Part shown: positions 6,402-54,474 of the stretch, in pieces
How the letters are laid out: each line of letters begins with the position of its first letter
How positions within the stretch are numbered: the stretch's first letter is position 1
Assembly: GCA_008632985.1 (NCBI GenBank)
Contig: QPGO01000013.1
Location: forward strand, 744,001-808,000
Direction: 5' to 3'
Origin: Psammoneis japonica
Taxonomy: Eukaryota
DNA: 64,000 bases
The notes under the pieces: model-generated
Told to the model about the DNA's origin: nothing
The model's input: the letters and a program-made list of their open reading frames with translations, nothing else
The model's database searches: none
Made by a program: the position numbers and the translations under genes

Positions 6402-7403
6402 ATGAACAAATTCACTTTAGCGGTGAGGTCTTACCAAGGTCTTTCTCAAGCTTTTCTTAACAAATTACGTGGCCACGATCCAGCGTTATCGTTGTTGGAG
6501 AGTAATGATTGTTTCTTGGACGGTGAAACAACCCGATTCTATCTGAACTGGACAGATGTAGATGCGGGAGAGTGCGCTGGGACGGACTGGATTGCAATTT
6601 TTATTTTATTTCTAATGGTTCATACAGTCAGTTGGTGGAGCCGATGGCTCGTTTGGGAGCCTGTCGCAAACTGGTTGTCGCGAGAGAATCGCAATTGGGA
6701 CCATGACACATGCAAGAAACTCTCCATGAACATGACAGCTGCTATGTTCTTTACAGTGTCGGGAATATTCGCGCAAAATATCATCTTTGGGAAACCGTGG
6801 CATCAAGACCCATCTCAGTGGAGTCATCCTGTTATCGCCGTCGAACCTGATTTCAAGTTTTACTATTTGCTCTATGCGGCCAGGTTCTTTTCAGATGCAA
6901 TTTCCCTTCCATTTGAGGATAGACCGAGACAGGCGTTCATTGCGAGCTGTATTCATCACTTTGTAACTCTTTCACTGGTGTTTTTGTCAGCTCATTTCGG
7001 CTACAATCGCATAGGTGGCGTCATTATGTCTTTTTTTGACTGGGCAGACCCCCCGCTACTTATCGGCAAGGCGTGCAAATACCTGAGTACCGGCAATGAT
7101 GCCTATCAGCTTGCCGCCAATCGACTCTTTGAAGTGTTCGCCCTTGTCTTCTTCTTGACTCGGATCATTCTTTACAACTATGTTTGCTTCATTGTATGGC
7201 GGGATTTCCAACCCATGTCATCGCCGGTGGGCATTATTTGCTTTGCGTTTCTTGTTGCGCTGGCAGCCTTGCAGACCTACTGGATGGGGTTGATTGTTCA
7301 AGCTGCAATCAGAATGAACGAAAGTGGTGGTAACGTGGAAGATGTCCGAGAAAAAAGAAATCATCGTAGCTGCTGCTTTCGGAGGTTTGACTTAGGAAGG
7401 TAA
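6402..7403 (+). CDS. Ceramide synthase (Lag1/TLC domain)
   Basis: Lag1p motif equivalent HHFVTLSLVFLSAHFGYNRIGGVIMSFFDWADPPLLIGK, plus FKFYYL, FFLTRI and C-terminal YWMGLI...EDVR; multi-pass membrane; intronless. Confidence 0.9.
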   Translation: MNKFTLAVRSYQGLSQAFLNKLRGHDPALSLLESNDCFLDGETTRFYLNWTDVDAGECAGTDWIAIFILFLMVHTVSWWSRWLVWEPVANWLSRENRNWDHDTCKKLSMNMTAAMFFTVSGIFAQNIIFGKPWHQDPSQWSHPVIAVEPDFKFYYLLYAARFFSDAISLPFEDRPRQAFIASCIHHFVTLSLVFLSAHFGYNRIGGVIMSFFDWADPPLLIGKACKYLSTGNDAYQLAANRLFEVFALVFFLTRIILYNYVCFIVWRDFQPMSSPVGIICFAFLVALAALQTYWMGLIVQAAIRMNESGGNVEDVREKRNHRSCCFRRFDLGR

Positions 7404-7542
7404 CAATAATAGAATCTTTTACTAGAGTATAATTCTTGTTGTGATATTTGATGTGACGTACGTGGCGACCGAGCTTTAGACCAGCTATTATGTCCTCGTC
7501 ACACCTCCAAGGAGAAGGTAACTGACGGTGGACTAAGACCTA

Positions 7543-9191
7543 TTACTTCTTTATCATACCACCGTATTCTAACTCACACCACTTGGTCAACACTTGGCCT
7601 ACATAAACGACTTGCGTTGGGGTCATTTCAAGGAGATTCGGCAAATATATGAGACTCTCGTTGATATCCGCTCCGACACACTTCGAGTTGGTATAATCCC
7701 ACGTGGTGTTGATCAAGGCTATCACAAAGTTGTCATTCAAGAATTCGACTAGCTTCTCCCTGCCCCCAACTTCACTAGCAAGCCACGTCAATTCAGAGAT
7801 GCCAAGGTTTTCCTTGTGCTGATGCTGGACTTGTTTTGTCAACCAGGGAAACAACTTTGAGTGAAACTTTTTGGGAGTATGACGGAGCAACAGATCTCGG
7901 TTGGCTTGCTCCTTTATGGCGATGATTGCATACTCGTCTGCTTTGCTCAGTCCATACCTCATTGAGAGTAGGTGAGGTACGGATGGCCGATGACAGAACT
8001 TCTCAACAGCGTGTTCGAATGGGGTAATTGATTTGGTTTTTCGGCTGTGACAATAAAGAGAAGCACTATGGTTAGAAACCACCAGAACACGAGCCCCCTC
8101 AATAAAGCAACAAGTCTCAAAGCTAATGGTAAAGTGTAACACAGTACTTACACTTTCAGGGAGATTGCATAAAACTTGATGTGGCCACCAGCCTGTCCCA
8201 ACAAAAAGTAAGCGGCAAGGGAAACAATATACACCATAAAGAAAGTATTGTGAGAGATCATCAGATGCACCGTCTGCTTCAAGACACTCATGAGTCGGTT
8301 GCCATAGGTGTCAAGGGTGAACCCTTCGTGACGAGCAAGACATTTTTCATAGAGCCTTTGTCCATGCTTTGTAGCACGAAAGGCACCAAAGCCCGCTCCA
8401 ATGCACGAAGGCGTCTTGTCAATGCCACCACTCCACACACAGATATCAGCTAAGGCGTGCCCCTTGTATTGGCCAAAGAGAGATCCGCATTGAACATTAT
8501 CTTCGAAAATTGGAATATCAAAGCGTTTCCCCAACTCAAAGATAGAGTCTTGCTCCAGAGGAACCCCGAATATGTGCATACCCAAAATGAGATCACACTT
8601 CTTGACTAGCTCTGGATCGATATTCTCTAGATCTAAAGTCAAGTCACTCGGCTTAAAATCAATTTCATAGTAATCGATTTCTCCGATACCCGAGTTCTGA
8701 ATGTTTTTCAATAGAGTGTGAAAGGATCCAAAGTGAACCGATGGCAGGCAAATGCGGATCTTTCGCCGACCCGTCCGTTCCTCTGCTTCGTCCAAGAGCG
8801 TCTGGATGACACACAAAAACAGGACACGACACGAATGCGTAATCAACACGTTCGTGTCAGGAGCCGGCTTTAAGATGCTACGAAAGGACTGCTCCACGAC
8901 ATTGACGAGCTTGTCGCGATCCTTGACAAAACAGCCCTGAAGAAAGCACCTGCAGTGATGGATCAAGAGCTCGCTGAACTTGGTGGAAACGCCACAAGCT
9001 GTCACAGGGACGACTCGTACAAGAGAGACCAAACAACGCCAATGAGCTTTAAGAAAGAGGATGCAGCAGGTGCCGAACCCCACCAATGCGCAAGAAATGT
9101 TGAGCGGAAAAGGGTCCAACAGAAAAGCATCCGTCATTTTGCTGCTTGTGTGAATTGCAAGTGCCCTTGATCGTATGGTTGTTCCCTTCAA
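7543..9191 (-). CDS. DegT/DnrJ/EryC1/StrS-like PLP-dependent enzyme with N-terminal hydrophobic segment; intron 8045-8151
   Basis: HIFGVP, PIFEDNVQCG and VWSGGIDKTPSCIGAG resemble fold-type I sugar-aminotransferase PLP motifs (Asp and catalytic Lys present). A GTAAGT...CACAG intron joins ORFs 8148-9191 and 7543-8142 in frame. Confidence 0.7.
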
Positions 9192-9555
9192 CAGACATGT
9201 CAGTATTTCTAGGGAAGAGACAATGCGACTAGCTCGGAACGAGATAGATCTCTCATTTCACTTGAAGTTTGCTGCACGGAGCACCAGCAACGGAACGCAT
9301 CATGGGAAAATTGTGGCGCAATTTTCTGCTTTGGGTATCTATTTTATTCATTCGTTTATACTATTCATTGTTAGATTTGCGCGGGAACATCTTCTGAAAA
9401 AAAGAATACTCAGTATATCGGTACTTGAATATACAGTATGAATAGAACGGAAAACTGAATCAATGGGCACTCACATGCTGTAATACAGTGTCGTAGAGGA
9501 GTCATGTTGCTTCAATGGAATGTAGCACAGGTAAAACGGAGAACGGAGGGCCAGC

Positions 9556-11081
9556 ATGGAGCATTCCAATAATAACAACAATAGCACATTCTCAATTCAA
9601 GATGTGGAGTCTCACTGTAGAGCAAATGACTTTTGGACCGTAATTGACAATGTTGTCTATGACTTGTCGGGATATCGCGACGATCATCCTGGAGGGGTCC
9701 TGATTATGAATGCCGCCGGTGCCGACGCGACGGTTTTGTTTCACCAGTATCACATGTGGGATCCAGAAAAGGCCCAGAAGGTGCTGCGAAAGTTCCGCAT
9801 TGGAGTCTTGAAAAAGGAGGACGATTCCTCTTTTGTTAGTCCCAGTATGGGAGAATTTTGGCACGTGTCGTCTCAGCGGGTCGTTGCTCATTTGAAAAAG
9901 GAGAAAATGGAGCGTCGTCCCTTCTACGCCAAATTGTTGTGGTTTGTTGATTTGGGAACTCTATTTCTCATGTACTGTACGGCACTTACCTTCTTGATCC
10001 TGAAAAGAGACGAACAGCACCACTCTGGCTCATGACGGTTTTTCACCTACTCATTATAAGCATGACCACGCTGAGAGTGACGGGTCAAATGCACGCCAAT
10101 GGGCATAGTCAGTTGTGGCAACCCAAGAGCTCAGCCTGTTGGTTCGCAGAGGTGTTTGGCCTATTCATGGGATTGCCGGGAATGTATGGCTTCTCGTTGC
10201 CTCATCACGATGAAAATGGCCGCCGGCTTCTCAATGAACCCCGGACTATTTCGCAGTACGAACTTCCCGCTGGACGCGGCTTTTCCGAACACACCGCCGT
10301 CCATCACGTTAAGGGAGTTCAGTTGGAAGAAGATCAGTGCCACCTTCAAGCTGCTGCCTTTGGTGTACAGCGCTTGTGCGGGACGGCCCGATACATGTCC
10401 GTGATTCATCGCTTTCAAGCTACCTTTGTTTTTCAGACCGCCCTGAATGTACTTGGAGAATTGGTGGATTGCACCCGTGTGTCTCTCATTCCTCCCCGAC
10501 TTGTTTATGTGGCCAAACACTTGGTCCCGAATGGGGAATATGTACGAAGTTTAGCCATTGTAATTGGATCTTGTGCGGCTCCCTTATCGTCGTGGTGCTA
10601 CCTGGCACTTCCTTGTAGCGGCACGTATGGCTTTGGCTTCTTTATCATGCTGGCTTTGTTGCGTAACTACTTTGGCATGTTCTCATTGCAGGTCTTTTGG
10701 GCGCAACACGTATGGGATTATCCGGTAGTGTCAGAAGCTGAAGTTCATCGAGATTGGGGCCGTTACAATGCCGAATCTAGCTACAGCTGGCAACCGAGCC
10801 GTGCTGATCAATGGCGACACCCATTTTTGTGGGGCAGCCTCAATGGTTCCAGTCCCGCGACGCTGACCTATCACTTGGAACATACCCTATTTCCGGGCTT
10901 GAATTACCACCTCCTGCCGCACATTGCTCCGATTGTGCGTCAAACTTGTCGCGAATTTGGTTGCAAATACCACGCCTTTTCTTCAACGCAAGAGCTGCTG
11001 CAATGTCGTCAACAAAAGTTAAGGCTGTATGCCCATGGTCAACCCAACATTATTCTTGACAATACCAAGAAACGCACATGA
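9556..11081 (+). CDS. Cytochrome b5-fused membrane desaturase (front-end/sphingolipid-type), split by a frameshift near 10000-10035
   Basis: HPGG heme motif in ORF 9556-10035; His boxes HANGH, HTAVHH and HLEHTLFP in the overlapping ORF 10032-11081; no intron signals at the junction. Confidence 0.8.
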
Positions 11082-11416
11082 GGAAACGATCATCACTCTA
11101 CAATTGGTCGTGTAAAGATCCACACAAGATACCTTTCTACGGCAACGCATGTGGTAGTTAAAATAATACTTCTATGCTCTGTTTGCTGCTATGACCCAAG
11201 CCAGGCTGCTAAAAGTAGATTTACAACAGTTTACTCTTTCTTATTTTGTGTATAAATATGTACATAAAAAATGGTGTTTGCCCGGATACGAAGACACAGA
11301 GAACAGAGACAACGGATCTCTGGCCACCGTTGGCAGAAACTATGATGAGACCCGGGCCACAATTTAACCGACAACCACTGTGCATGTGACTTTGTCGCTG
11401 CTGCAATACCCACTGT

Positions 11417-12112
11417 CTACGATGCCCTGCGCTGGGTTGTTTTTGGGCAAGTGCCAAGCGCTTGGTCCCAGAACGTGAAGAACGGCTGCTGAAATGCAAC
11501 AGCTTCCTTTCCAACCTGCATGTGGTGATGACGGTGGCATTCAGCATTGTTGGGAAAGCACGTGAAGGGGTCAAATGGGAGCATGTGTCCGCAGTGGGCC
11601 GACACTGTCTTTGCAGAGGCTGCAGTGGCCAAAAGAGCACTTTCCTCTGCGTGCAGGCTGCAAACCAATGTTGCAAAAATGATGCATCCTGCGTCTGCAA
11701 CGAGCAACTCCCAAAAAGAGTTGTGGAGAGCTGAAAAGGTGAGCGGCTGGCGAAACTTGTGGTGGGCCTTGTGCGTGGTTTCATGCAGCAGCGGCACCGC
11801 ATGCAACGTGCAATGAACAAAGTGCTGGTGCGTGTCAATGGCGACAGCTCCGAGCACCATTCAAAGAAATCTGACCCCATTGCCCTTGGCATGCATGGCA
11901 TCATTGCCAAAGAAGTGTTCTGTGAGAGAATGCATGAGCTGAAGCTGCAAGCACCGGATGATCGCCTCGTTCACGTGCTCATTTGGAGGGTCAGATTTGG
12001 CGATCTTGTGGCGGCGGAAGAGGTCGAAGTGCTGGATGGCCGTGTGCACGCACGAATGTGCCATGTAGGACACAATCGGCCATGACGCTGTCACGAAGCG
12101 AGTGAACGACAT
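11417..12112 (-). pseudogene. SUR2: Sphingoid-base C4-hydroxylase (SUR2/SBH, fatty acid hydroxylase family), hypermutated, in-frame TGA at 11861-11863
   Basis: DTHQHFVHCTLH, HKAHH, KTVSAHCGHMLPFDPF, FPNNAECHRHHH and QPFFTFWD match the Sur2 pattern (DTWQYFxHR..H, HxxHH, KTVDDHCGYxLPxDPF, NNAxYHDxHH, QPFFTFWD). Probable ATG at 12112. Confidence 0.88.
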
Positions 12113-12538
12113 TCTATTGCTGTGTGGGGCAAGTACGAGCACCGGTGGCTGTTCGATTCTCGACAGTGATTGATCACCATTGTACCGTAAGTGTCGACAC
12201 TCTCGCTCACACGCGACTGCAAACGGCAACGACTCTAATTTCCGGTTGAAGTTGAGTACCGCATGTGCAACCCAAGTTTGGCATGCTCTATCAATGGCTT
12301 GCATGTACGTATGATAATAGATACTAATAGTTGTCCGTTGCTTTTGTCTTTTATGCACTCTTGAAGTTTTGGTAAATTTACTTAAATGAAGTATGAGTAG
12401 GGCCATGCTCGCTCTGGCATACTTGAATATGCATGTTCGCCAATTCTTTTATTGTTAGCGATGCCTTGCTGGCAATTGCGTAATCGAAGATAACTTTACA
12501 TACATACGCCGCACACCACATCTACTTCGTTCGCCACC

Positions 12539-15121
12539 ATGTTAAATAGCTTCGATGCCGATGGCCCAAGAACTTGGTCTGTTGAGAAGAAAGAGAACGT
12601 CCATTGTGCTTCTCGTCGTTTTTTGGATGAGAATCGGTGGTATGCTACTTTGGCGTTGAGCCTGGGTATTACCTTTCTCTGCCTACTGTTGGTGTGCATG
12701 TTGCACCAATACCTTAGAATGGTTGTTACTATGTGGGATTGCCTCTTGCACATCAAACTGTGGTTTGCCTCCGGGATTTCCGTGCTCGTTACACTCCTGT
12801 GCTTGTGGAGAGATCGCGCACGCTGCCAAAGGGTCCGCTCATCTTATATCCATCAGAAGAAATTTGCGCTGGTTCTTGCAATTTGTATATCCCCGGTTTC
12901 GATTGTCCAAGAAATTTTCACCCTTTCGTTTCCCTCATTTGCCATCCTGCTGAATCCAGGAGCATGGGGCTCGTTCAAGGTTTATGATCCTGCTCATATC
13001 CAACAGGTTCGTCATTGGTGACAGATAGTTCTTTCTTTCTTTCTTTCTTTGAAGTATTTCCTCATCTGTGATCTTTCCAACGGTTTGCCCTATACAAGGA
13101 TTTGTTGGGAATATGCCTCAACGATGAAGAGATTGAAAACGAAACTGTTCGTAATGACTTATGCCTTTCCGAAGCAAGCTGGAGTTCCTTAAGGTCAGTT
13201 CCATGTCCCAGTGGCGTTTCATCTCACGACAGTGTAGTTTACAGACTCTTCTGACCCCTTTTCTGCTGTACTTAGCTCTGGAGCTCTCTCCATTCGAAGG
13301 TCTCAAGATGTGCAAACTGTGTTCGAGGGTGTTCAATACGCTCGGCAATCCGGTGGTTTGGTCGTAAACATTCTGGCACGTGACACGGCACGTGCCATCA
13401 ATCCTTTGCGTCAAAACATTGAGGGTCTGATGCTATTCTTTTCCAATGTATCAGTTGTGGTTTTTGAGAATGACAGCGAGGATGACACCAGGGAAGCCTT
13501 CAAGAAATGGTCGTCTGAAGCGCAAGGGTATTCTGTTGATTTGATCGAGTGTGAGGAATCGAAGGACTGCATGTTTGGCGACATTCACCGCTACGATACA
13601 GACGATGATAGCTTCGAAAACAGTGTTATCGGGAAAATGGCTTACTATCGCAACAGGGCTCTGTCGTATATACTCAACAAACCCGTGTACCAGGACTACA
13701 GTCACATATTGGTCCTTGACATGGATCTGGCGATCTCCATTTCGCCTCTCGGTGTCCTCCATACGTTGGGATCCAAGCCAGATAATGCCGTGGCGAGTTC
13801 AGGAAGAGCTATCCTTAGAGGGTCCTTTGGAACTCGACGTCTTCCTTACGATATGGTGTCATTTGAACCACAACTAAAGAGAAGTAACAGGTGGCTTGTG
13901 CATCTACACCAAAAGTATTGCGAGGTGATGCCACAAGGGTCTCGATGGAGGAACCTTTGCGAAGACGTAAGTCCCATGAAATCGATGCTAATGTCCATCG
14001 AGGATGCCCATACGGAACTTTATCAGGTACAGTCTGCATATAATGGCGCCGCACTGTATCCGTTGCATGCGATTCGTCAGGCCAAGTATAACACCGGGAG
14101 CTACGGACAGCGCTGCGAACATGTTGGCTTCCACTTATCTCTAGACGAACCTGTCTTCGTCAACTCCAAGTGGAACATGAATTTGAGTCTAGAACGTCCT
14201 CCTGGACCATCCGGGGAACAAGCTTGGACTGACATAACCTATGTTTTGTTGTCGTTAAAGCTTTCATTGCTGGTGCTTGGGCACAGGATACTAAGCCTTT
14301 TTCTAGTGGCATGGTGCACAATCCGGATGCTGTTGGCATGTCTCAGCCAAAACGAAGCTAGGGTGCTGCCCACTACTCATACCTCCACATTTCTTCATTC
14401 TTCTAGTTGGATGACAAGACGAGTATTCGAGCTAGCCTTGGCCTACCCAATTCTCACCTGGATTGCTCGGTTTGTCAATTTGTTGGTAGACGACGTTTTT
14501 TATTATCCTGTTCTCTTTATGGGTTGGTCGGTTTCGACGGGTGGGAGCTGGGGCGAGCCTTGTTTCTTTCAAAGCCTGTTGACACGGACTGGTTGGTGGA
14601 TGGTTACTGAATCAGTTCTAAAGATGATAATTCAGATGCCCCGACCAGTGCACTGTGAGGAACCAACAGTGATTCTCCCCGGCGACCATTTCGCATTTCC
14701 GTCTGGTCACTCCTTTCGTGCCTTTGCACTAGCTCGTGTGCTGGCTCGTGATCCTTTTCTCGGTTCGAAATTGCCGTCTGCAGTTTTTCTGGGATTGCCA
14801 ATGTCCATTGCTTGGGCTCGCGTGGCCCTCGGCAAACATTCAGTGTGCGATGTTGTATTTGGTTCCATTCTGGGAATGATGTTTTCAGATTATTTGGAAC
14901 CGGCTGTTGGCTTGCAGGCACTGTCCAGTAACTTCTGGTGCTGTGTGCTCTTCTTTAGCATAATTGGGATGTTGTGCCTGGTTGACCCATGGATGCCCAT
15001 TTGCAAACAAGTTTGGCAAGTCACGGGTTTGCGGAAGCAAAGCGAAAGACTACTATTTCTCTCTTTGTGTTGTGGTGGCTCTTGGGTTGTTCTGGTTGGT
15101 TCTAGTTTCAGTGGCTGTTGA
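12539..15121 (+). CDS. Membrane protein: N-terminal TM region + GT-A glycosyltransferase (CAP59/GT69-like) + C-terminal PAP2 lipid phosphatase; predicted exons 12539-13006, 13099-13193, 13276-15121
   Basis: GT motifs FENDSEDDT, MAYYRNRAL, VLDMD, SAYNGAALY, CEHVGFH; PAP2 motifs KMIIQMPRP, FPSGHS, ARVALGKHSVCD. Two GT-AG introns give one 803-codon frame; the intron calls are by eye. Confidence 0.8.
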
Positions 15122-18100
15122 ATGCAATGCAATGCGGAACCCATTTTGATAAGAACAAGAACCCATAATTGGTAAATGGTGTGGAAAAAGTTAAATTCCG
15201 TACAAAAATGTCCTTTTTCGGCCAAAATTTTCTTGAACGCCCTGTGCCCTGCACCGGGCTTTGGAATGCCCTCGCCCGTTTCTCTTCACTTTTCACTCAA
15301 AAATCGAAAAGCATCATGTTGACCATGGCAAGTTGCAGCCACCCCTGCAGCACTAACAATGATGGTGACAGAGGGCAACCCAACCAAGAAGAAGAGGATG
15401 GATTGGGAGGGGTGGCGTGAGTCGTCATGATGACTGCAGCGAGGCAGAAGGGGGCGATGCTGCCAATGCCGCCTCACCTCAAGTCATCAACTCCAACCAC
15501 CATTCACCGGGTGCAAGCAACCCAGCAATCTCACAATCACAAGTTGCTGTCAGCCTGTCAAATGAAACAAAGGTCGCTTCATGAGATCATGCAGCCACTC
15601 TGGTGTTGCTCGAAGCAGCTCTGAAGCATGCGAGCAATGTCGTGACAGCCAAGGACACAGAGGCTGATTTGATGTTTGTGGTGGAACTCATCAAATTGTC
15701 CCCAAAACAATGGCAAGATGAGCACTCAAATGGCTGCAAGGTGGGCACAATGAAAAGATTTAGATCTGGCATGATTCAGAGATGCAGAAATCCAAGAGCT
15801 TGACAACATGTTCAGCTCTTTGGTGGAGTCTAAAAAGAGCCATGTCAAAGCAGGAGACAAAGGCAGATCACTGCACAAGTTGAGGTTGTGGCACCTCAAT
15901 GATGATGGCAGCTGCACACATGATGATCTGCCACTCCACTGTGGTGGGCTCTGCAACAACTTTGTCAACTGTGCTGACACAAACACAACAAACGGGAAAG
16001 CAGCAAGAAATGACATTTGCCTGGAATGTGGGCACATGTTGAACAAGAAGAGGAAAGTCTTGTTTCATTGGATGCAAGAGGAGGTTTCAGAAACAGCACA
16101 ATCTGTGTCCTCATTGCACTCTGTGATGTTCTGATTCAATTGAAAACCCCAGGGGCTGAAAATTTGACAAGTTTGTTGCTTTGTGTTTTGAGACAGATGT
16201 GACAAAATCAATGAAACCCAAATGGCAAAGATTTGCTTGACAGCAAGATCCCATCTTTGGTCGCTGTTGAAGTGAGTTGGGGCTCAGCTAACTTGCTTTT
16301 TCTTTGCAAGGTGTCTTCAAATGTGTTGCAAATTCTGCAACCATGACACTGTCCCAACTGAGGGAGAATGCAGTGAACAAGACATCAGTTTTGACATTGT
16401 TGTGATTTGTGACATTGCACCAGAGCTGTGTGAAGTGATGTTCCACCATTGAAGAAGAGAGTGATTTTGAAGAATTTGATGATGCTCCACCTGATGTTGA
16501 GAGTGGAGATTCTGCCCAGAAGAAAAGTGCCAACTTGCACTGCTGCTGACTGCAACAATTGTGCAAGTCAAAACCTGTGCCACTCTTTGGAAGCAACGTT
16601 CATCAGAAATTTCAGTGCAAGACAAGTGGCTCATCACTGTGGAAACTTTTTTACAAGAATTTTGGAGAAGGCTTGAAAAATGTACTCCACTCTCTTTTGA
16701 CTCAAAACAGAGGAGCAAAGGGAATGTGGTGAGTGCCTCATGCCTTCCTTTTGAATTGTTGCCATGGACTCAAGTCCAGTCATTTGTTGAGATTCAAGGC
16801 TGCTGGAAAGCAGTGCTGAAAGGTTGGGGCAATGCAAGTGTCAGCAACCAAGCTGGCAGCCAGATCAATTGCAAACAAAAGGAAGCCAGCTGGCAAAACC
16901 ACAGTTGCCACAAAATGGGTTGCTTTGTTCTCTGATGCTTCTGTGGCTTGAGCATTGTCACTTGCAATCATTGCTCTTTTCAAGCACACAAGGCCTTGGT
17001 GCATTTGTTGGCCCAGTGCATTGGGGTTGCTTGGCCTCAAATTTTGATGAGCTGCAGCTTCCTTCAGAGCCAACCAAAACTTGTGCTGTCAAAAGAATGA
17101 AAGAATTGCCAACTCTTTTTGAACAGGACAACCACTTTTTTCTTGTCTCCAGAGTGCTGCTCCTCTTTTTCCTGCTGGATGCCATGGCTGCACAAAAGAT
17201 GATGATCTTTGACATTGGTGCAAGAAAATTGGAAACTCAAATGTGATGACTGTTGTTGAGTCATGATGCAGACAAGTGCACATGACCTGCTGGCAGAGCA
17301 ACATTTGGTGTCACTTGGTTGGCCATGGCAAAAAGGAGATGGCATTTTTGTGACAAAGGAGGGTGCAGGGCATCAGTTGCTGGTGGCACATTTGAGCCTT
17401 TAGAGTGTCAAATGGGGCTGCTGCAATCATCAGCAACCAATGCCCCCCACCTTCCTTTGTTCTCAAAATCATGACAGAATGACAGCACCATTTTGCAGTT
17501 CATTGTCACATGGCAAAGAAGACCTGAGAGGTCACAAAAATTCGTCATCTGACAGATGGAGGACAGACCAAACATTCAGTCATGAAAAAGGCTGCATTTC
17601 AACCTGTGCAAAATTGTCCCAAGCTGTGGATGTTAAATGTGCACCCATTGGACTTGAGACAACATGCCAGTCCACGTGTTTCTTGAACTTGAGCTTGTGG
17701 TGTGATTGCAGTGCAGCAACTCATGCAAAACATCAGAGCCACATGTTGACACAAAAAACATGTTTTTCTGCTCCAACAGCTGTTCATCCTGAGCTCAGCA
17801 ACTGATGATGCTTTTGGCCTGTGGCACCAGCAAACAAGGCATTGACAAGACTGTTTTTTTTTTTTTCAGTGTGAAAATCCACAATGAGCTCATCATTGAG
17901 AAAGATCATTGTGCACAACATGCCAAATGGTGCTGTGACAGCATGGCACATGATGAGAAGAAACTGCCAAAAAGTGTGCAGAGACTGTGGTGGAAGAAAA
18001 ACTGCAGACAAGGCATGACCGGAGCATGCACAGAAGGATGGTTGGAAAATCCAAGATGTGAGGCTGCCAAGTGGCACACAGTGACTTTTGACAGCTGGAG

Positions 18101-18144
18101 TTGGTTACAGAAAACCCAGAGAAAGCTGTTTTTGTTGACAAAAC

Positions 18145-20278
18145 AGCAAAGACAAAACAAGCCATGAGACTGTTCTGTCCTCACACTTTGTTTTTTTTGT
18201 TTGCAGTTGTTTTGCTACATCTGCAAGATTGGGCTCTGTCATGTGGCGTTGAAGATTGCAGACCTCCAATGGCACTTCTCAGCATGGTCATTGAGTGGCA
18301 GTGACTGCCTCTCTGAGCAATGCCGTGGATGAACAAAAGGTGCAAAAAATGCAGCAGAGTGGAGACAAGAGACTCAGAATCCAGAGCCCTGCACAAGCAT
18401 GGCAGCGCAACAGGCAGTTTTTGGCCTTTTCACTCCCAGCTTCACAAACACTGCTTCAGGGGGACATCCACCATGATTTTGATTGCCTCTTTTCTCTGTG
18501 TTGCAACCACCAATCATGCACGCTGACTTTGGCAAGGGAAGATTCTCCTGAGACATGTGTGTGCAGACTTTTTTGAGTGAAAGTCACTGTTTGTGTTGGA
18601 GCATGAGCCTTGTCTCATGGGTTTTCATGTTGGTGTGGTGCCACAGAATTTGTTGTTTTGTCACATGGGCCATGATGTCAGTGCACTCAGCCTCACTTTT
18701 TTACGTCATTGTCAAGGACAAAGTGAGTTGATTGAATTCTTTGGAAGGTGCATTGTCCCATGTTCAATGAGCTGGCAAACATGCCACACGGTGCAGTGGC
18801 CCAAAAATGAGCAACAAAATTTCTTTTCATGATGGCTGAGAGAGCCACTTTGCAAGATTCAGCATGTGGTCAAAGAGACCAACAAGATGATGAAGATGTG
18901 ATTTGGCACTTCTCCACAAAATGACAGCAACAAAATGAAAGAGCAGCCACATTTTTGGGAACACTCAACATGCAAGTGTGTGCAAAACACACTAAAAAAG
19001 ACCTTTCTTGATCTCACCATGGATTTTTACATTGTCTGCTGAGTTGCAACACTCAACTTTGCCCCACCCCCTGTTCAGATGCAGCAACCCACATTGAAAA
19101 TGAGGCATGTTGTTGACATTGAGCCACAGCTTAGGATTCAATGATCTGAACAGGATCTGCTCTGGTGCATTCAAGGCAGGCAAAGTTTCTTTTTGTGCTG
19201 GAAAAAGATGTTTCACTTTGAATTTTTCAGAGCAGGGATCTTGGCACAAACAAGTCATCATGCACAATTGAGTGCACTTGCCACAGCATCTGTCCATTGT
19301 GGCTCTGATGGCACATTTGTGTGTTTTTCTCATTTCTCAAGTGTGGTTTTTGTGGAGTGTGATCATTGTCTTCCTGTCACATTTCATGGCAACAGCAGCT
19401 GAGTTGCTTGCTGCACCAGGGGAGGGCAACATCTTTGGAGAGGCAAAAAGATGGGGCACAATGCATGAAGGGGGGGGTTCTCCTGCAGAGCTCAGCACTG
19501 CACGCACAACTGGTTGAATGCAGCCAGGCACTGCTGTGTTGCTGTGGCACACAATGACAAAAAACTGAAAAAGGAGCATGTGGAGACTGCAATGAAAAAA
19601 CTTGGTGAAAAGGCATGGCAGCATTCATGGAAGGATGGTGGGAAAATCTGAGATGCAAGGTCAAGTGGCAAGGGCACTTTTGATGGCTGTGGAGTCATTT
19701 TTAGAAAAAAAACAGAGGAGAGCAAAGACAGAACAAATGACCAAACTGTTCTGTCCCTCACACTTTGTTTTCTTGACTGCAGCTGTTGCCATGTCTGCAA
19801 GACAAGACTCTGTTGGATGGCATTGAAGATCACAGACCTCTGGAGGCATTTCTCAGCATGATCATTGAATGGCAGCAACTGTCCATCTGACAAGTGATGC
19901 AGATGAATAAAAGACATGTGCGGCAGAGCGGTGCTTTAAACAAGAGACTCAGAATCCTCCAGAGCCCTGCACAAGCCCTGCAGCACAACATTTTTTGGCC
20001 TTTTCACTCCCAGCTTCAAAACACTGCTTCAGGGGGGTGCTGACTGCAGCAAGGGAAGTTTCTGCTCAAGCATGTGCATGTGGACCTTTTTGAGTGAAAG
20101 ACACTGTTTGTGTTGGAACACATTGGCCCAGTCTCATGGGGTTTTCATGCCAGCACGGTGCCACAGAATTTCTTGTCATCATGTGGGCCATGTTGTCAGA
20201 GTGCTCAGCCCAACTTTTTTGCTTCATCGTCAAGGACAAAGTGAGTTGATCAAATTCTTTGGAAGATGCATTGTCCCA
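18145..20278 (+). repeat. Diverged direct repeat, ~18145-18760 and ~19721-20278
   Basis: Shared blocks in the same order: ctgttctgtcc(c)tcacactttg, caagagactcagaat, ttggccttttcactcccagcttca, gtcaaggacaaagtgagttgat. Confidence 0.85.
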
Positions 20279-20441
20279 TTTTGTGCTCAGATTGTTGAAT
20301 TTTGAGCTTTGTCACCTGGGGCTGGCTTTGAAGAAATTGAAACTGTGGCTCAATGTTGACAACACACCCCATTTTCAATGTGGTGGGTTGCTGCATCTGA
20401 ACAGGGGGCGGGGCAAAATTGAATGTTGCAACTCAGCAGAC
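19035..20441. repeat. Inverted duplication of ~100 bp (19035-19130 minus; 20340-20441 plus)
   Basis: Both copies translate as KLWLNV(N/D)N(M/T)PHFQCG(G)LLHLNRG(W/R)GK(V/I)ECCNSAD on opposite strands. Confidence 0.85.
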
Positions 20442-21532
20442 AAAACCATGTGTGATTGTGCCAGACAACTGGCAATGGTTGGCAAGTTTTGAGGCAGTCT
20501 GTTCAGCCCATTTCCCTGAATGAGACAAGCACTGTGTTGTTTCATGCAACAACATGCAGCCAGTCTTGTTCTGGTTTTGATTCTTCATTTTTTGTGCCTG
20601 CCCACCACCTTTGGTGTTGTCATCAGACTGTCTCCACATTGGCCTGCTTGTCTTAGTGACAAATTTTTCTGAGCCTTCACTTCAATTTTGGTCAAGCAAT
20701 CTGAGGACTTTGTGGTGTTTTCTCTCTGAAAGCAGCGCAGCTCAGATGACCCAGTTTTCTCAGACTCAAGCCTCTCAAAAATGCGAGCATCAGCACTCTA
20801 AATCATGCCAATGCAACCCACTGCCACTTGCTGCCATGTCTTGGTGGTTGTCTTGATGTCTTCTTTTTCTTTGGCAATCTTGCATTTTGTTGCCTCTTTT
20901 CTGCTCATCTTGCCTCCTCTCCTTCTTGTTGCCACCACAATGTTTTTTTGTTCATGTGTGGCCGGCACCACCAAGACAACAAAACCCACAATCAAGGAAC
21001 AAGAAAAAACACAAACACACTGTCACAGCCTTGACACATGGATGCTGTGGCAACCACATGAGTGCACCTGGCCACATGCAAAGATTTCATGATGCCGAGA
21101 CCCCTGCTCTGAAAAATTTTCCAAAACTCAGTGCAGAGGGCAGAAGACAACAGTGCGAGACAGAGAAGAAGCATCAAAATGTCGGGCATGCCGGACCCAG
21201 AGGTGAATTGGGTGAGAGTGACAACATTCGCTGGAACATCTCATCTCTCAAAGTGTGGACTGAAAGACCGAAGTTAGCGGTTTTGTACTAAGAGCTGCAC
21301 ATTTGAAGCCTCAGAGGCAGGTCAAAATGACATGATGACAAGCGTGGGAAATGCGAGCTATTTTTTAAATTAGACCTCAACTGGAACAAGAATGATCATC
21401 AAAGATACGAGATCGATCGGATTATCGCGTTTGATCCAGATCTTTCTGCTTCTTCCAACATCGTCACTTTGCAACAACCGAACAACAAACAACAACTCCA
21501 TAATCAATACGTTGTAGTGCATAAGAATCATC

Positions 21533-22372
21533 ATGAGCAAAAGCATCTTGGTTAGCGGTGGCAACTCTGGCATTGGCCTTGCATTGTGCAAGCTCCTTGC
21601 GACTCAACACGGGTGCCGTGTCTTTCTGGGCTCTCGTTCCGAGCAACGCGGCCATGATGCCGTCAAGAGCATTGAGGAAGCAATTAGTGGATCTCCCAAA
21701 CCGGGCCAAGTGGAATGTGTGCAACTCGATATTACATCCGAAGAATCCGTAAAAGCTGCTGTCGAGACAATCAAGTCGAAAACCAACGGCGATCCTCTGT
21801 ATGCCCTTGTCAACAACGCTGGCGCTGGTTTGAGTCACGGTACTGAACCCAAGACTATTTTAGACACTAATCTGTATGGAACCAAACGTGTTTGCGATGC
21901 TTTCATGGATCTTGTGGATCCCACCGAAGGACGTGTTGTCAATGTCGGTTCTGGAGCTGGACCAATGTACGTTGCAGAATGTGACGTGGAAACGCAGAAG
22001 AAGCTCTGTGATCCCAACGTAGAATGGGCATGGATCGACGAGCACGCCAAGTCGGCTCTTGGATCCGAAGCGGACAAGATGGGAGGATACGGTCTCTCCA
22101 AGGCACTCGTTACTTGCTACACCGCTTGGTTAGCAAAGCAGCACCCTTCAATTACCTACAGTTGCGTTACGCCTGGATTCATTGCAACAAACATTACCAA
22201 GGGATATGGCGCAACCAAGACTCCTGAAGAAGGGGCTGTCCCTTTACTTCACTGTTTATTTGAAAATCTAGACGGTAATGGTTGGTACTATGGATCTGAC
22301 TGTGTTCGTTCGCCTCTCCACGTTCTGAGAAACCCTGGAGAACCGGCATATGACGGGAAATTGCCGTTTTAA
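21533..22372 (+). CDS. Short-chain dehydrogenase/reductase (carbonyl reductase-like)
   Basis: SGGNSGIG Rossmann motif, LVNNAG, catalytic YGLSK, TPGFIAT; intact 279 aa. Confidence 0.92.
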   Translation: MSKSILVSGGNSGIGLALCKLLATQHGCRVFLGSRSEQRGHDAVKSIEEAISGSPKPGQVECVQLDITSEESVKAAVETIKSKTNGDPLYALVNNAGAGLSHGTEPKTILDTNLYGTKRVCDAFMDLVDPTEGRVVNVGSGAGPMYVAECDVETQKKLCDPNVEWAWIDEHAKSALGSEADKMGGYGLSKALVTCYTAWLAKQHPSITYSCVTPGFIATNITKGYGATKTPEEGAVPLLHCLFENLDGNGWYYGSDCVRSPLHVLRNPGEPAYDGKLPF

Positions 22373-24774: not shown

Positions 24775-25641
24775 TCACGAGTCAAGTGTTCGGGAGGCAA
24801 GCCCCTTCAAGTGGAGAAGGTCGCGGTTTCTCTCGAGGAATTCACAGATCGAGCCCCAGTGGTCTCGTCTAGCATACGAAAGGGGAGTGTGTCCACGCTT
24901 GTCACTCATGAGAAGCAGGTCAGGACAACGCTCAATCAAGATGGTCAAGACGCCAAAGGCTGGCTCTTGGGCCCAACAAGCATCGTGAGCAGGCGTTCTT
25001 CCGTAGTCGTCTCGAAGGCGAATCGAGACGTCGGCCTCCTCCATGAGAAACTTGAGCACATTCTCCGATCCTCGACGACATGCCATGTGGACAATGCTCT
25101 CTCCAAAGCGGTTGCAACACTGAAGATTCTCGCCGGAGTGCATCTTGCTTCGTAGCTCTTGGATGTTCTCTGTCTTGATGGCGTCGATCATGTCATGGTC
25201 GTAGCCCGAGAAGTTGTCCGTTGTCATCTCCAAGAAGAAGTTCTCAAGAGATAAAGAGTCGATTGATGCAGTAGAGTATCCATTTGACTTGAGGATTGAT
25301 TTGAGCAACTGCTCTGGATTGGTGTTTCGGTAGATGCTTGTATCAGTTCTCGTTCGTGAAGAGGCGGAGGCGGGGCCCTGAATCACAACCATTGGAGACA
25401 AGCGACCGGTGCTTGATTTGGAACTCGTTGGCATGGGGCCTGTTTCCATTCTTCTTCTCTTGTTACACGTGTTTGATGAATGGAGTCTTGAGGTAAGGCT
25501 TGACGTGGACGATTCAGCCTCGTCACAAAGCACTCGTTTGTTTGGCCGGCAATGTTGCGGACACGACATGGACGCATCCGTTAGATCATCGTCAGAGACA
25601 ATGCGGCATTCTGGAGGTTGAGTGGACGTAGTAGATGTCAT
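24775..25641 (-). CDS. Ankyrin repeat protein
   Basis: NRFGESIVHMACRRG, DDYGRTPAHDACW, DKRGHTPLSYA; Ser/Thr-rich N-terminus. Confidence 0.9.
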   Translation of the reverse strand: MTSTTSTQPPECRIVSDDDLTDASMSCPQHCRPNKRVLCDEAESSTSSLTSRLHSSNTCNKRRRMETGPMPTSSKSSTGRLSPMVVIQGPASASSRTRTDTSIYRNTNPEQLLKSILKSNGYSTASIDSLSLENFFLEMTTDNFSGYDHDMIDAIKTENIQELRSKMHSGENLQCCNRFGESIVHMACRRGSENVLKFLMEEADVSIRLRDDYGRTPAHDACWAQEPAFGVLTILIERCPDLLLMSDKRGHTPLSYARRDHWGSICEFLERNRDLLHLKGLASRTLDS

Positions 25642-34900: not shown

Positions 34901-37900
34901 CAACTTATTCAGAGCGAGCAACGCAACCTTAACAAAACAGAAGCGCACGTTGCTTAAGATCACAAACGAGTATCAAAAGGCAGCTTCATGATAATGAACT
35001 CACTTCTCGCAATCCCTGTTTCCGCGCCGTCTTGGCCATTCGAATTGCTGTCCATGGACGATCGTGAAGGGTGGCAAGCGTGCCGGGTTCAACGACGGCC
35101 TGGAAATTAGATGTGATTGCACTGAACATATGTGTTCGCCACAGGAAGAGGTCTTCCCACACGGAAAGCCTTTCGAATTCATTCGGCAAACGGTGTCGCC
35201 ATGCGCTGCGCGAGCAATAGGTATGCCAACCAACAGCGTTAGATCTCCAGCCCTTCAATAAGACTACAGCAATAAAGACCCACAACCAAACTCACCTGAG
35301 CAAATTCTTTAAATCCGGGAGTGTCCGTCCACTTGCGTGATTCTTCGTTTCCACCATTATTTGTCCTGACTCTCTCAATTCAACGAGACGATGGAAGAAT
35401 TGAAGCAAACAGACATGAGCGTCACTACCACGAGATATGTCCGGCAGCAGCTGCCATTGGTGAAGAGAGAGCTGAGCCGTTTGGGCGTGGAGGTTTTCAA
35501 CTTCACTTAATTTTCCTTCGGCGATCGCAAGAAGAATTTCACTCATTTTAATACATGGATCCCCCATTTCCACTGCGGCTACAAGAGAGGATTTTGTGCA
35601 TAGTCTTCGAACAGAGTCCCAACTTTGCGATTTCCACGCAGCTTCCAGGAGAAGTCGCGGGTTCTGCGATGATTTGGCATACTCTGATACTACCTGCCAC
35701 TGGCCCATTTCTTTCTGTAGGCCGATCCATCTCTCCTCCCAAAGGTCCAGCTCGAAATCAGACGGAATTGGCTTGTCGGACGCTTCGGCTTTTTCGATAA
35801 GAGCCTCATATGCGTTAAGAGCCTCAATGACCATGCCGTGACGATCCAGAGAAAGTGCCCACTTGCTCTCCTGCATCACGCAAGACTTGGCTGCTAGAAC
35901 CAAACCCGAGTCAGACTCTCCGAGGCGATTGTAGCAGGTGCGAACCGCTGCTTTCGTCTTTTCCTTCACAGCAGAAACTTGCGGATTAGCAGTGTCCATA
36001 GACGACATCACTGAACCTTGCCTCTCGAGAATCGACAGCACCTCATGCCACGAGCTGTAACTATCTGCAAGAGTTAGCAAGAGATCGGTGTCAATTGATG
36101 GCGTGGGTCTCAATTCCCCAATAGCTCGAAGTGTCGTTTTCACAGCGTTGTGTCTGGCCGTTCTTAGCCTGCACCAAAACCCCTCATCGGAAACAGCTGG
36201 TACGGCTGGCGACTGCTTTAGAAACTGGGAATGAAACGGACGAGCCAACAAGGATTCCATCGCGGGCACTATTTCCAGTCGTATGTAGTCATTGGGAAGC
36301 TTCGCCCACGCAGAAACAAGCAAGCTTTTGAACAGGCGTTGGCAAAGAGAAAAGTCACCGTGTGCGAGAACTCTAACGGAATCAATGCACTTCCCACGTG
36401 CATCCGTCAAAGACGACTTCTCTTCATTCATCTGCTTACAAAAAGCACTGTAGCAGTGATCGAATTTCTCCAGCCTTTGTACGTAGAACGAAGAGGAAAC
36501 TTCGTCGCTTTGACGAGGTTGAGGCAACCACGTCCCGTCCAGTCCGTCGACAACGGAGTGTACCTTAGAGCATAAACGCACACCACCAGCGCGTTTGCTG
36601 GTAGCCAACAACGAATCGACGAACACTGCATTCCAATACCTACCACCCAAGCCTTCGTAATCGCTGTGAAAGAGTTGCCACAAGACATCCAATGGGCTAC
36701 GGCTACGGTTCCGTGCGCCTTCAAGGGGAGTGTTGTTGGCGTCGTCTACACCGCTGTCAGAGAATGAGGTACTTCTTGAGGCGAAAAAGAAAGCTTGCAT
36801 GCCATAAATATCGAGAAGTTTTGACCGTATCGATGGGTTGGCACTTAGCAGACAAGCGACAACCGTCCTTCCCATGAAGCAGTCACGATTCACAGTTCGT
36901 CCGAAAGTCGAGCCACGTGGAATGGAATAGCCATCTCCCCTTCGCATCGCCATTACAACACACGCAACAAGATCAGCAACTGGCTGCGCCGTAACGTCAG
37001 AGAGCCCATTGAAGTCGAAGGAGGAGAGCTTCCACAGAAAACTATCCCTTTCTTTTGACGTCAATAGCCCGTCGGATTCCTTCGCGACCAACCATTTGCC
37101 GATAATACTGACACAGGTCATCAATATCTGTACATTGTCACTGAGGTCAAGCAGGTTGCTGACAACCTGAAAGAAGGTTCGTCTGTTCACTGTGAAGGAC
37201 AATGGAACGCTGCTACTGGCGACAAGGCGCAGGCATTTAGTTAGACTTCTCAATGCCGTACCCAGCGGTTGCACATTTCGCCCTTGTTGCCCGTCGTTCA
37301 CTACCGCGGGCTTAGAGTTGCCGCTTACAACCGTCTGTATGTGCTCCCCGGAGCATGCGTCTGAAAAAATACCGGCCGTCGGCGTTACATGCATTTCATG
37401 GACGACCCGCGATCCCATTTGTTGAGAAGACGAGGAAAGATGCCTCTGGTGTGAAGACGCTTCTTGCGCGTGCTTCTTTGCCAAGTTCTTTGTTAAAGAA
37501 GACAGGCTACCAACAAACCTCTCCACGAACTCAGGGTTGGACATGCATATTTTCTCGACCACTTCAACGCAAAACCACGCAGGGCAATCATCGCCGACAC
37601 CCTTGTAAACGCCAGGAGCTGTCTTCTCTTTGGTTCTGGCGTCGCTCTGTCCAGCGTTGTCTGAGCCTCTCCCGTTTGAGCCTGTCAACTCTGAGGCGTC
37701 TGGATTGGTCGCATCAACAATGGCCTTCTCCATGATAGCCGAGATTTGAAAAAGATCTTCCTCGTAGAAAGTGACGCCGCTGTGTCGAGAGAACACCTGG
37801 ACAAGGAATCTTCGAAGCTGCTCCCTGATACTTTTGCCTTCTTCGCTGCCAGCTCTGGAAATACAAGGCACCATAATTTCTTTTATCTTCGAGGCATTGT

Positions 37901-52700: not shown

Positions 52701-54417
52701 GATGTCGCAAAATGATAGGAAAGAAATGGATCGGTCCAGTGGCTCCTAGCAATGGTGCATCCCATCGAAGTGCATCTTTGGTTTGATTCCGTTTTTCTTT
52801 CCTTGTACATCTTACGATACATCGTTCACGTTCATCGTCACAGCACGAAGTGCTTCCAAACATCGCTTGGTTCTGCTGATGGTGCTTTTGATGGCACGTC
52901 ACTTGAGCTGCACTTGGCATTGCAGAGGGAAGTGCCGAGGGCTCCGTCGAAGGGTTGGTCGTCACATCAGCTGCCCGAGTGGAAGGGTCAGTCAACGGGA
53001 CTCTGCTGGTTGGTAAAATCGGGAAAGCTGATGGACAGGAATAACATGGACTCCAGGCCGGAGACACTCATTCGATTTGCCCCGACCTCCGGACTTAACT
53101 GGCAACACCTACGCCACCTAGAGACAACACTTCGTGCAAGCAAATGAGTTGTATAGCTGCCAAACAAGAGAAGACTTTCTATTTTTCCGGAGGAAGGGTA
53201 AGCCATCCTCGGCGATCGCTGCATTCCTGCTTGGCAAACAACAACATCGTGCGAGACGTCGAGTTGTGAACGAAAAAACGACGAGCGCGAGAAGACGAAG
53301 CGCTTTCGAGAGATTTCTTGTGTCGTGACCGTTGCTAAATTTCTCAATCACTATCATTTTTGTGTATCTTTGTAGAACTAATACCATGTTTTCGTATGTA
53401 AAACATTCGTAGGAACTTGGTGCTGTCAAAATTATTACTTATTCCTGCGTAAACTTTACGTACGGTGTAACCGTACCGTATGTACTGTAGAAAAGAAACT
53501 GCCGCCGCGGTGACGAGGTCCGAGCTCCAGAATTAGCAGATAGCACAACACTGATATCTCTGATCTCTGCCATGATGGCCATGAGCCATGATGCCATGAT
53601 GCCACAAGCACGGCATTCAGCATGACGATGACAAAGCTCCGGATTGAGATCATCACAGATCACAGTAGTCGACAGGATGCGTTGGCGTGTTGTTTTGTCG
53701 ATTGATATTGTATTCCGGACAAAGAAAGTGAAAAGGACCTTTACCGTGGTACGTTGAGTGCTGTTGATTGTTGAGCTTCACAGAAAAAGCATTTGATTGC
53801 AGCAAAGTATGCTTTGCTCTGACGCCTGCTTCTACTTCTACTTTTACCTGTTTTTAATCATACCTCCAATCCATCGACTCGTATCGGTTTGTGGTGTACC
53901 ATGTCGGGTATTGATGTCCCGGTATTCACTTTTCGGGAAGCATTTCCGCTTTTTTTCGATTTGCTTTCTCAACCTACCTCTGGCCAACTGCATATCGTCG
54001 AGACTTGGAATGACTGCATAACAAGCCCTATTCCAAATAATCAAAAAGAACTTGCAGTCTTTTCGGATTCAAGTCATCTTGTTGATTTTGCTCGTGATAC
54101 TCCATTGCTGTGGGCGTCGTACGTACTCAATCAAGTCGTCCTGGGTCGGCACCTTAACAATGGTCTGGCGCTGGATTTGCTGGACTATTATGGAAATGCC
54201 AACAACACCACGACTATTGACTGTCCAGACCGTATTCACTGACGAGTAATTCACTCGAGGGTGATGGAGACATACCCGTCAACAATGTGTTGTCGCTCTA
54301 CGCGGCAGAATATAAGAAAACCGTGCAGTAGTGAATTTGTTCGAGAAGAACACAACAGAGGCAACGGCGTGGACTGAAAACTCTCTTTGTCGCTCATGAA
54401 ACAATTTGTCATGCGGT
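49708..54417 (+). repeat. ~68-bp direct repeat pair (49708-49775 and 54350-54417)
   Basis: acacaacagaggcaacggcgtgg(g/a)ctg(g/a)aaactctctt(c/t)gtcgctca(c/t)gaaacaatttgtcatgcgg occurs at both sites. Confidence 0.9.
49770..51945 (+). pseudogene. 5'-truncated, frameshifted DUF1800/DUF1501 family protein with C-terminal hydrophobic tail
   Basis: GSIREP, LLTSGRLS, (shifted) MLAGGCDSFNMLVP, FGVHEELP, TSEFGRTL and DHAWGGNYFMAGGAVKGGRILGEYP spread over several frames; no start exon seen. Confidence 0.75.
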
Positions 54418-54474
54418 TCTTTCTAGCTAGAGTTAGTTGCTAAGACATTGCGCCTATCGTCGTGCAGTTTCTCG

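Follow-up and report, generated by a model that had tools for sequence, protein, structure and literature searches.

How can a single dinucleotide be erased from one part of a chromosome and kept nearly everywhere around it? The question is raised by a 64-kb stretch of the Psammoneis japonica genome (QPGO01000013.1, positions 744,001–808,000; hereafter the window, to which all genomic measurements below refer), where a reading of a SUR2-like fatty-acid hydroxylase coincides with a tract that contains no TpA at all. The reading occupies positions 11417–12112 on the minus strand, its ATG (12112–12110) aligning with Met1 of the homologue P0001 and its TAG stop lying at 11419–11417. The TpA-free tract, T1 (11419–12065, with no strand assigned), begins at codon 17, 48 nt into the coding sequence and just past a surviving Tyr codon, Y16, and finishes at the stop codon. 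The answer that we consider probable is that T1 is a chromosomal SUR2-like gene in which a locus-restricted, DNA-level process has turned essentially every TpA into TpG or CpA, and that the same process has saturated two further tracts of the window, T2 and T3.

The composition of T1 is extreme by any measure applied. An earlier note on this DNA had reported, from a manual scan, zero TpA in 646 bp with many CpG left, and a count bears this out, with 0 TpA and 32 CpG in 11420–12065. The TpAs that border T1, at 11418 and 12066, are 648 bp apart, whereas the longest stretch without TpA in first-order Markov simulations of the window (200 runs) had a mean of 226 bp and never exceeded 445 bp. Were TpA as frequent as in the remainder of the window, where its observed/expected ratio (o/e) is 0.58, T1 would hold 19.5 TpA, and the Poisson probability of finding none is 3.5e-9. 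TpG and CpA are in excess (o/e 1.88 and 1.56), with 84 TpG against 52 expected and 55 CpA against 41 expected, and CpG stands at o/e 0.68. Outside the tracts, the corresponding ratios are 1.17 for TpG, 1.16 for CpA, 0.58 for TpA, and 0.97 for CpG; TpA o/e over the whole window is 0.51. Other AT-only steps in T1 are spared, ApT standing at o/e 0.98 and AA at 1.51, with neither AA nor TT depleted; ApT o/e is 0.79 in T2, 0.71 in T3, and 0.92 in the rest of the window. GC-biased gene conversion was considered as a cause and rejected, because ApT, AA, and TT are all kept in T1 though TpA is gone. On its left side the edge of T1 is sharp, falling from 13 TpA per 200 bp (11200–11399) to 0 (11600–11999). 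Erasure is thus confined to discrete blocks, with sharp edges and with a TpA o/e of 0.29–0.71 in the remaining 20 long open reading frames (ORFs) of the window. The lowest of these values among otherwise normal ORFs, 0.29, belongs to an ankyrin-repeat ORF (24775–25641) with a normal CpG o/e of 0.96; its low TpA could be chance or a mild form of the same process.

T1 lies in a recognisable gene. The reading belongs to the eukaryote-type fatty-acid hydroxylase family and matches the Pfam profile FA_hydroxylase (PF04116) over positions 1–132 of 132 (E = 1.2e-16; 61.8 bits against a cut-off of 31). Its three His boxes are kept, with H100, H104, H114, H117, H118, H193, H196, and H197 invariant in an alignment (A2) that includes the nearest homologue, P0001, and P0002, each of which is 60% identical to the reading (62% for P0001 by BLASTP), and no indel or frameshift separates it from P0001 across 224 aligned residues. 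As had been claimed earlier, the reading is free of Tyr across the tract (0 in 215 in-tract codons), and His reaches 11.2%, compared with 1.3–4.3% Tyr and 1.1–5.7% His in the 20 other long ORFs. None of those 20 has, as this reading does, a TpA o/e of 0, 0% Tyr, and 11.2% His. The earlier account of a gene that had lost its Tyr therefore stands; what it had omitted are the two further tracts and an in-frame TGA at codon 84 (11861–11863, minus strand), where the aligned residue is Arg in P0001 and Gln in P0002. A CGA-to-TGA change, that is, CpG to TpG, would explain this stop. Because near-invariant Tyr residues now read His or Cys and a TGA interrupts the frame, the hydroxylase gene is most likely dead, and recently so. 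TAA and TAG cannot occur where TpA is missing (this was noted for 11390–12085 and for T2), and every frame there has long stop-free stretches, such as one of 249 amino acids on the minus strand (11221–11970). TpA-free tracts are accordingly a hazard for annotation, in that they yield long false ORFs and Tyr-free pseudo-proteins by which gene callers would be misled.

The direction of change was inferred by codon from homologue proteins rather than from homologue DNA. A HMMER scan with P0001 as query gave 1294 relatives at E <= 0.001, P0002 included, and the 150 of these that were listed formed the family alignment for Tyr conservation. A word-based protein search with the T1 reading returned a single relative, P0001, among 289 candidates, the same search with P0001 as query recovered P0001 alone among 189, and a metagenome scan with another alignment (A1) gave 318 pattern matches yet no relative. 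None of the 15 in-tract Tyr of P0001 remains in the T1 reading, where His stands in 10 cases, Cys in two, Phe in two, and Thr in one, with 12 of the 15 codons now reading CAY or TGY; Y16, the sole Tyr outside the tract, is retained. The motifs quoted in the earlier note as marking lost Tyr (DT-H-Q-H-F, LL-H, AL-H-N, HCG-H, NNAE-C-H, and GT-C) are all found in the translation and all align with homologue Tyr. Where it had taken CAT GAA to stand for TAT AAA, His does replace Tyr, but the expected Lys finds no counterpart in the homologues (Tyr-Glu in P0001, Tyr-Arg in P0002), and the Glu that follows His in T1 and is common to P0001 may be ancestral.

Intact homologues that themselves carried His or Cys at the lost-Tyr sites would, by the earlier note, refute this history; at positions 97, 110, 130, 176, and 192 none of the aligned relatives has the His or Cys of the window. 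Tyr occupies these positions in 127 of 141, 137 of 146, 147 of 150, 110 of 149, and 119 of 144 relatives, respectively (74–98%). At positions 19, 23, and 35 it is less conserved (29 of 94, 28 of 84, and 45 of 80), and His appears there in 3, 0, and 17 relatives. As an intact gene, then, the reading fails on two counts, its in-frame TGA and its replacement of Tyr conserved at 74–98% by His or Cys that the homologues lack. Tyr makes up at least 2.4% of every one of the 161 proteins compared (the 150 listed homologues and members of four of the homologues' clusters). A three-way comparison within the tract assigned 22 unique changes to the window, 28 to P0002, and 25 to P0001, and the excess of TpA-erasing substitutions that the earlier note had asked for was present: 10 of the 22 window-unique changes are Tyr losses, two more are Ile replaced by codons (ACA and GCA) that fit loss of ATA, and two are Arg changes of the CpG type (CGC to TGC and CGC to CAC). 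By our reading, Ala125 to Thr would also be a CpG change, one that spans two codons. More broadly, several homologue Ile read ATG, ACA, or GCA in T1, as ATA ancestry predicts. The low ordinary divergence (22 unique changes compared with 28 and 25) argues that ordinary constraint held on the gene through the greater part of its past, with conversions at pyrimidine–purine (YpR) steps as a recent overlay.

These conversions are not evenly shared between the strands of T1. Tyr-to-His outnumbers Tyr-to-Cys by 10:2, or 10:3 with codon 185 included (p = 0.09), and sense-strand CA:TG is 83:55 (p = 0.02), a ratio that lies between 0.52 and 1.31 in other ORFs. The bias means that A was changed more often on the template strand, and could come from an RNA:DNA-hybrid substrate or from selection while the gene still worked. 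T2, by comparison, is symmetric over its whole length (TpG o/e 1.82, CpA o/e 1.86). The process proposed in the earlier note, distinct, strand-symmetric, and regional in its conversion of TpA to TpG and CpA, is thus upheld as regional and as acting on both strands, but not as fully symmetric in T1, given the ratios for CA:TG and His:Cys.

That the process is regional and reaches both strands is borne out by the two further TpA-poor tracts, both intergenic, both repeat-containing, and neither assigned a strand. T2 (15354–21275; 5922 bp) has 19 TpA (o/e 0.04), a CpG o/e of 0.12, and TpG and CpA at o/e 1.82 and 1.86. T3 (~59800–61591) has, over 60060–61591, 3 TpA (o/e 0.04) and a CpG o/e of 0.22. 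Within T2 lie two direct-repeat copies on the plus strand (17944–18764 and 19545–20282, 77% identical) and an inverted repeat whose left arm at 19032–19132 pairs with 20340–20443 at 91% identity over 101 nt, with no strand assigned. T3 holds about three diverged 327-bp tandem units, which were aligned by hand-set coordinates; Tandem Repeats Finder returned 0 rows for T3. As to what the tracts encode, Pfam searches of six read-through frames of T2 and T3 found 0 families at E <= 0.1, tblastn of 481 queries (200 window ORFs and 281 proteins) against T2 and T3 gave four marginal matches regarded as chance (best E 6.5e-4), and Rfam gave 0 matches at gathering score in the whole window. In run X1, the second assembly introduced below, the summed contig depth climbs from ~64 on either side to 154 at 16878–17311, contig ends lie loose at 17119, 17205, and 17320, and a portion of T2 would seem to be present there as a dispersed repeat.

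The repeats provide a record of how these tracts were rewritten. Over 728 aligned positions of the T2 direct-repeat copies there are 28 double differences of CA versus TG, no other double class exceeds four, and 0 CG/CG and 0 TA/TA pairs survive. In the T2 inverted repeat, the only double differences are two of the CA/TG class, and comparisons among the three T3 units yield 8, 9, and 2 CA/TG double differences. The simplest reading would be that the ancestral sequence still had TpA or CpG at these steps when it was duplicated, and that each copy resolved them independently to TpG or CpA. Such discordance between copies implies that the conversions occurred in place, after duplication. TpA and CpG depletion have common borders except in the left 300 bp of T2, where TpA is gone and CpG is left, as in T1; the erasure of TpA thus precedes that of CpG.

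A second assembly bears on the age of these changes. Contigs of run X1 (Logan), apparently from the same sample as the window assembly, span T1 and T2 at depth 55–65 with few differences, so that more than one assembly shows these tracts. Window and run together represent one sample and one study, and since the counts of differences were drawn from those listed, each is a lower bound. On the X1 contig that spans 10911–14195 (3285 bp), all six listed differences fall inside the 647 bp of T1 (Fisher p = 5.7e-5) and all six alter the protein; none is listed at the in-frame TGA. At two minus-strand positions, X1 still has the Tyr codon TAC where the window reads TGC (11559, codon 185) or CAC (11587, codon 176). 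Tyr is the family state at codon 176 and is found at codon 185 in P0002 and a third homologue, P0003, which places both TpA losses on the lineage of the window. The TAG stop of the window is CAG in X1, and two further T1 differences set CpG against TpG or CpA, the ancestral state being CpG by comparison with homologues. In T1 and T2 together at least 28 differences are listed in 6569 bp, compared with at least 12 in 6432 bp outside (p = 0.017). Among the listed transition differences in these tracts, 19 of 24 interconvert YpR steps, where chance alone would give 48% (p = 0.0018). An exchange of CG with TG or CA accounts for 10 of the 28 listed tract differences. By these comparisons, the hypermutation process looks recent or ongoing.

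Taken together, heritable conversion of TpA to TpG and CpA has occurred at the DNA level in sharp-edged blocks, independently in each repeat copy, and alongside conversion of CpG to the same two products, and it separates two alleles. In mechanistic terms, a targeted deaminase might turn the adenine of TpA into hypoxanthine on either strand, with targeting that could follow silencing marks or a guide RNA; a role in genome defence, raised in the earlier note as adenine deamination was, is likewise conjectural. The same TpA process, together with decay of CpG to TpG and CpA, would have saturated the non-coding, repeat-containing T2 and T3, and the CpG loss may reflect 5-methylcytosine on the same silenced DNA.

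A process of this kind has one precedent, in Bigelowiella natans, and the phenomenon is therefore not categorically new. Regional TpA hypermutation was described in mutation-accumulation lines of that organism (Mettrop et al., bioRxiv 10.64898/2026.01.13.699255, April 2026). Two integrated viral regions mutate ~1000-fold above the genome background, and 230 of 231 mutations in the hypermutable regions are A→G or T→C, every one of them at TpA (10.64898/2026.01.13.699255). The B. natans genome further holds 324 low-TpA coding sequences, with likely host Pfams also among them, and 124 clusters of 1-kb windows depleted in TpA and enriched in CpA and TpG (10.64898/2026.01.13.699255). An ADAT2-like DNA adenine deaminase and a role in defence are proposals of the authors, and ADAT2 enzymes that act on both A and C in DNA are cited (10.64898/2026.01.13.699255). 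The likeness to P. japonica is close: TpA is hit, TpG and CpA are the products, and discrete regions are affected in an otherwise normal nuclear genome. Both cases also involve coding sequences low in TpA and high in CpA and TpG, clusters on the kilobase scale, raised diversity inside the regions, and many unannotated targets. The cases differ in that T1 is saturated (0 TpA) and the B. natans region derived from a nucleocytoplasmic large DNA virus keeps 3.3% of its dinucleotides as TpA, and in that mutation was measured directly in lines there, whereas here two assemblies of one locus are compared. Full-text searches of a limited library found no other report of a TpA-restricted signature, and none on diatoms, which go unmentioned in the preprint as well (10.64898/2026.01.13.699255). 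The earlier note was right to set the process apart from CpG decay and from fungal repeat-induced point mutation (RIP), but a process of this kind had already been described in B. natans; the present locus is probably the first instance outside chlorarachniophytes.

Could a different route have led to the same sequences? Because TpA is self-complementary, T→C on one strand is indistinguishable from A→G on the other, and an identical TpA-to-CpA/TpG outcome might have come from chemistry on thymine, by oxidation or modification of the 5-hydroxymethyluracil or base-J type, with a product that mispairs with G or is misrepaired. In dinoflagellate DNA, 5-hydroxymethyluracil is reported to favour TpA and TpC, which speaks for such a route, but a TpC preference would deplete TpC too, and the reduction of TpC is slight (o/e 0.78 in T1, 0.94 in T2). 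We know of no thymine-modifying enzyme or modified base in this organism. Moreover, the authors of the sole experimental precedent favour A deamination, if as a proposal (10.64898/2026.01.13.699255), and we regard thymine chemistry as unlikely. Still less probable, in our judgement, is that T1 is a retrocopy, reverse-transcribed and inserted from a transcript hyper-edited by an ADAR/ADAT-like A-to-I activity that prefers U at −1. The tract roughly matches the coding sequence in length, has no intron, and ends within 1 nt of the stop codon, having started 48 nt into the coding sequence, and known A-to-I editors do prefer a 5′ U, a UpA/TpA context with an A→G outcome that resembles the present one (10.64898/2026.01.13.699255; PMC11156358). 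Such editing, however, acts on RNA and leaves the genome unchanged, whereas here DNA is changed heritably and on both strands: TpG and CpA are both enriched, and the majority change, Tyr to His, would need an edited antisense RNA. The T2 and T3 copies were converted independently, in place, and after duplication, two alleles of the locus differ by further TpA losses, for which a DNA-level process is needed, and the first codons of the reading, which precede the tract, align collinearly with those of the homologues.

The remaining alternatives fare worse against the same evidence. A working gene from which selection keeps TpA out, be it because of RNases that cleave UpA, a transposon that targets TA, or a restriction site that contains TA, would agree with the intact His boxes, the collinearity with P0001 over 224 residues, and the low TpA of the window as a whole (o/e 0.51). 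Yet Tyr conserved at 74–98% has given way to residues found in none of 141–150 homologues, the frame holds a TGA, all six listed allele differences alter the protein, the 20 other ORFs retain TpA at o/e 0.29–0.71, and the same erasure affects non-coding T2 and T3 with CA/TG outcomes discordant between copies, so that selection of this kind is very improbable. We give equally little credence to an artefact of assembly or base-calling at modified bases, or to inosine misread as G, in spite of the 40 or more positions over 13 kb at which X1 contigs differ from the window; the separately assembled contigs carry the tracts at depth 55–65, and the listed disagreements amount to 28 of 6569 tract positions. 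A misread A would be split between TG and CA, leaving the assemblies in disagreement at about half of the sites, but a single TG/CA disagreement (19616–19617) is among the differences listed, and the homologue comparison gives a coherent history at the protein level. Deamination of methylated CpG is well known from silenced repeats of vertebrates and plants. It resembles what is seen here in the CpG o/e of T2 and T3 (0.12–0.22), lower than the 0.68 of T1, in the accompanying gain of TpG and CpA, which CpG decay also yields, and in allele differences that exchange CG with TG or CA; diatom transposons are, moreover, reported as CpG-methylated (PMC9998398). As the sole cause, combined with ordinary pseudogene decay, it is the least credible of these alternatives: it is unable to remove TpA, which C→T at CpA would create, T1 lost all of its ~19.5 expected TpA yet keeps 32 CpG, and Tyr to His or Cys requires T→C and A→G, opposite to C deamination. 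Since it leaves the loss of TpA unexplained, it can be no more than a side process acting on this DNA.

Two defence systems invite comparison with the TpA-erasing process. Like fungal RIP, it consists of regional, both-strand, dinucleotide-specific transitions that inactivate selected DNA and mutate repeat copies independently. RIP, however, changes C to T, chiefly at CpA, and so generates TpA, whereas here TpA is destroyed and CpA and TpG are created, the homologues giving the direction as T→C and A→G, and T1 is not detectably duplicated in run X1. APOBEC3 hypermutates retroelements by turning C into U in single-stranded cDNA, which is read out as G→A, in a strand-specific manner and in TC or CC contexts. 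The two share deaminase-type defence editing that leaves hypermutated relics in the genome, but in P. japonica it is TpA that is lost, and on both strands.

Several observations nevertheless weigh against a single TpA-targeted process of the B. natans type. T1 is a host-type lipid gene, where the B. natans process was tied to viral or foreign DNA (10.64898/2026.01.13.699255), and no viral relatives emerged from IMG/VR scans that used alignment A3, P0002, and the adjacent TLC protein. T1 appears single-copy at >=90% likeness in run X1 (its depth is that of a single contig) and its neighbours are untouched, which leaves no visible reason for its targeting. Three of the 15 Tyr replacements (two Phe, one Thr) are no TpA transitions; Phe/Tyr exchange is frequent in the 150-relative alignment of the hydroxylase family. 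The differences between window and X1 could be haplotypes, strains, or residual assembly errors, and outside the tracts six of nine listed transitions also interconvert YpR steps (p = 0.23), so that this class is nonspecific when taken alone. C→T and G→A at CpG have also occurred in the tracts (CpG o/e 0.12–0.68), a change that the B. natans preprint does not report, the word "CpG" appearing 0 times in it (10.64898/2026.01.13.699255); either two processes overlap, or the process differs.

A more unified account, which we consider doubtful if somewhat less so than thymine chemistry, is that one silencing-coupled system rewrites both TpA, by adenine deamination, and CpG, by cytosine deamination, to TpG and CpA, is aimed at single transcription units, and permanently silences host genes as well as invaders in at least two distant branches of the stramenopile–alveolate–rhizarian (SAR) group. 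A dual A/C deaminase could do both, by analogy with the ADAT2 enzymes active on both bases in DNA, and aim at one transcription unit might perhaps be taken through an RNA:DNA hybrid, which would fit the bias of A changes towards the template strand of T1 (10:2). If true, such a system would be a widespread protist counterpart of fungal RIP that runs in the opposite chemical direction.

The window is eukaryotic nuclear DNA that holds Tra1, a DEAD-box helicase, and lipid genes, with long single-ORF genes. For the helicase, the best of 7359 scored relatives is 51% identical, and no near-identical protein appeared in the database searched, which is built from NCBI, JGI, and MMETSP; all 10 listed matches with an organism name are diatoms, and by local BLASTP eight of them are 42–51% identical to the helicase of the window, much as distantly related diatoms are to one another. 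On this one gene, B. natans is a very unlikely source, and the DNA looks like that of a diatom or an allied stramenopile. The hypermutated gene lies within a run of normal-looking sphingolipid-type genes (6402–22372) that may form a lipid-pathway gene cluster, namely, a TLC/LAG1 ceramide-synthase-like ORF (6402–7403), a cytochrome-b5-fused desaturase in two overlapping frames (9535–11081), a glycosyltransferase–PAP2 fusion (13238–15121), and a short-chain dehydrogenase (21533–22372). Four differences between window and X1 fall within 17 bp (9836–9852) of the b5-domain ORF, outside the TpA-poor tracts, and may represent a complex variant or a local assembly error. The Tra1/TRRAP gene (35292–46876) consists of five long minus-strand ORFs separated by gaps of 76–253 bp, with one 20-bp overlap, and such short gaps suggest introns that are few and short there. 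Elsewhere, an 80-bp unit is tandemly duplicated in direct orientation at 2270–2428 (96% identity), and a 70-bp dispersed direct repeat (49708–49777 and 54350–54419; 93% identity) recurs 4.6 kb apart.

The locus adds to the B. natans precedent a host-type gene whose intact homologues allow the direction and completeness of conversion to be followed at each codon. It also adds repeat copies, which prove conversion to have been in place and copy-independent, and a loss of CpG within the tracts that lost TpA, a link between the process and DNA that is silenced and probably methylated. For base-editing work, there would be interest in a natural enzyme able to deaminate adenine at one defined dinucleotide of double-stranded DNA. 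A second lineage with TpA hypermutation would show that the process is no quirk of one species, and opens it to comparative genomics: which deaminase families are common to both lineages and absent from relatives free of the signature?

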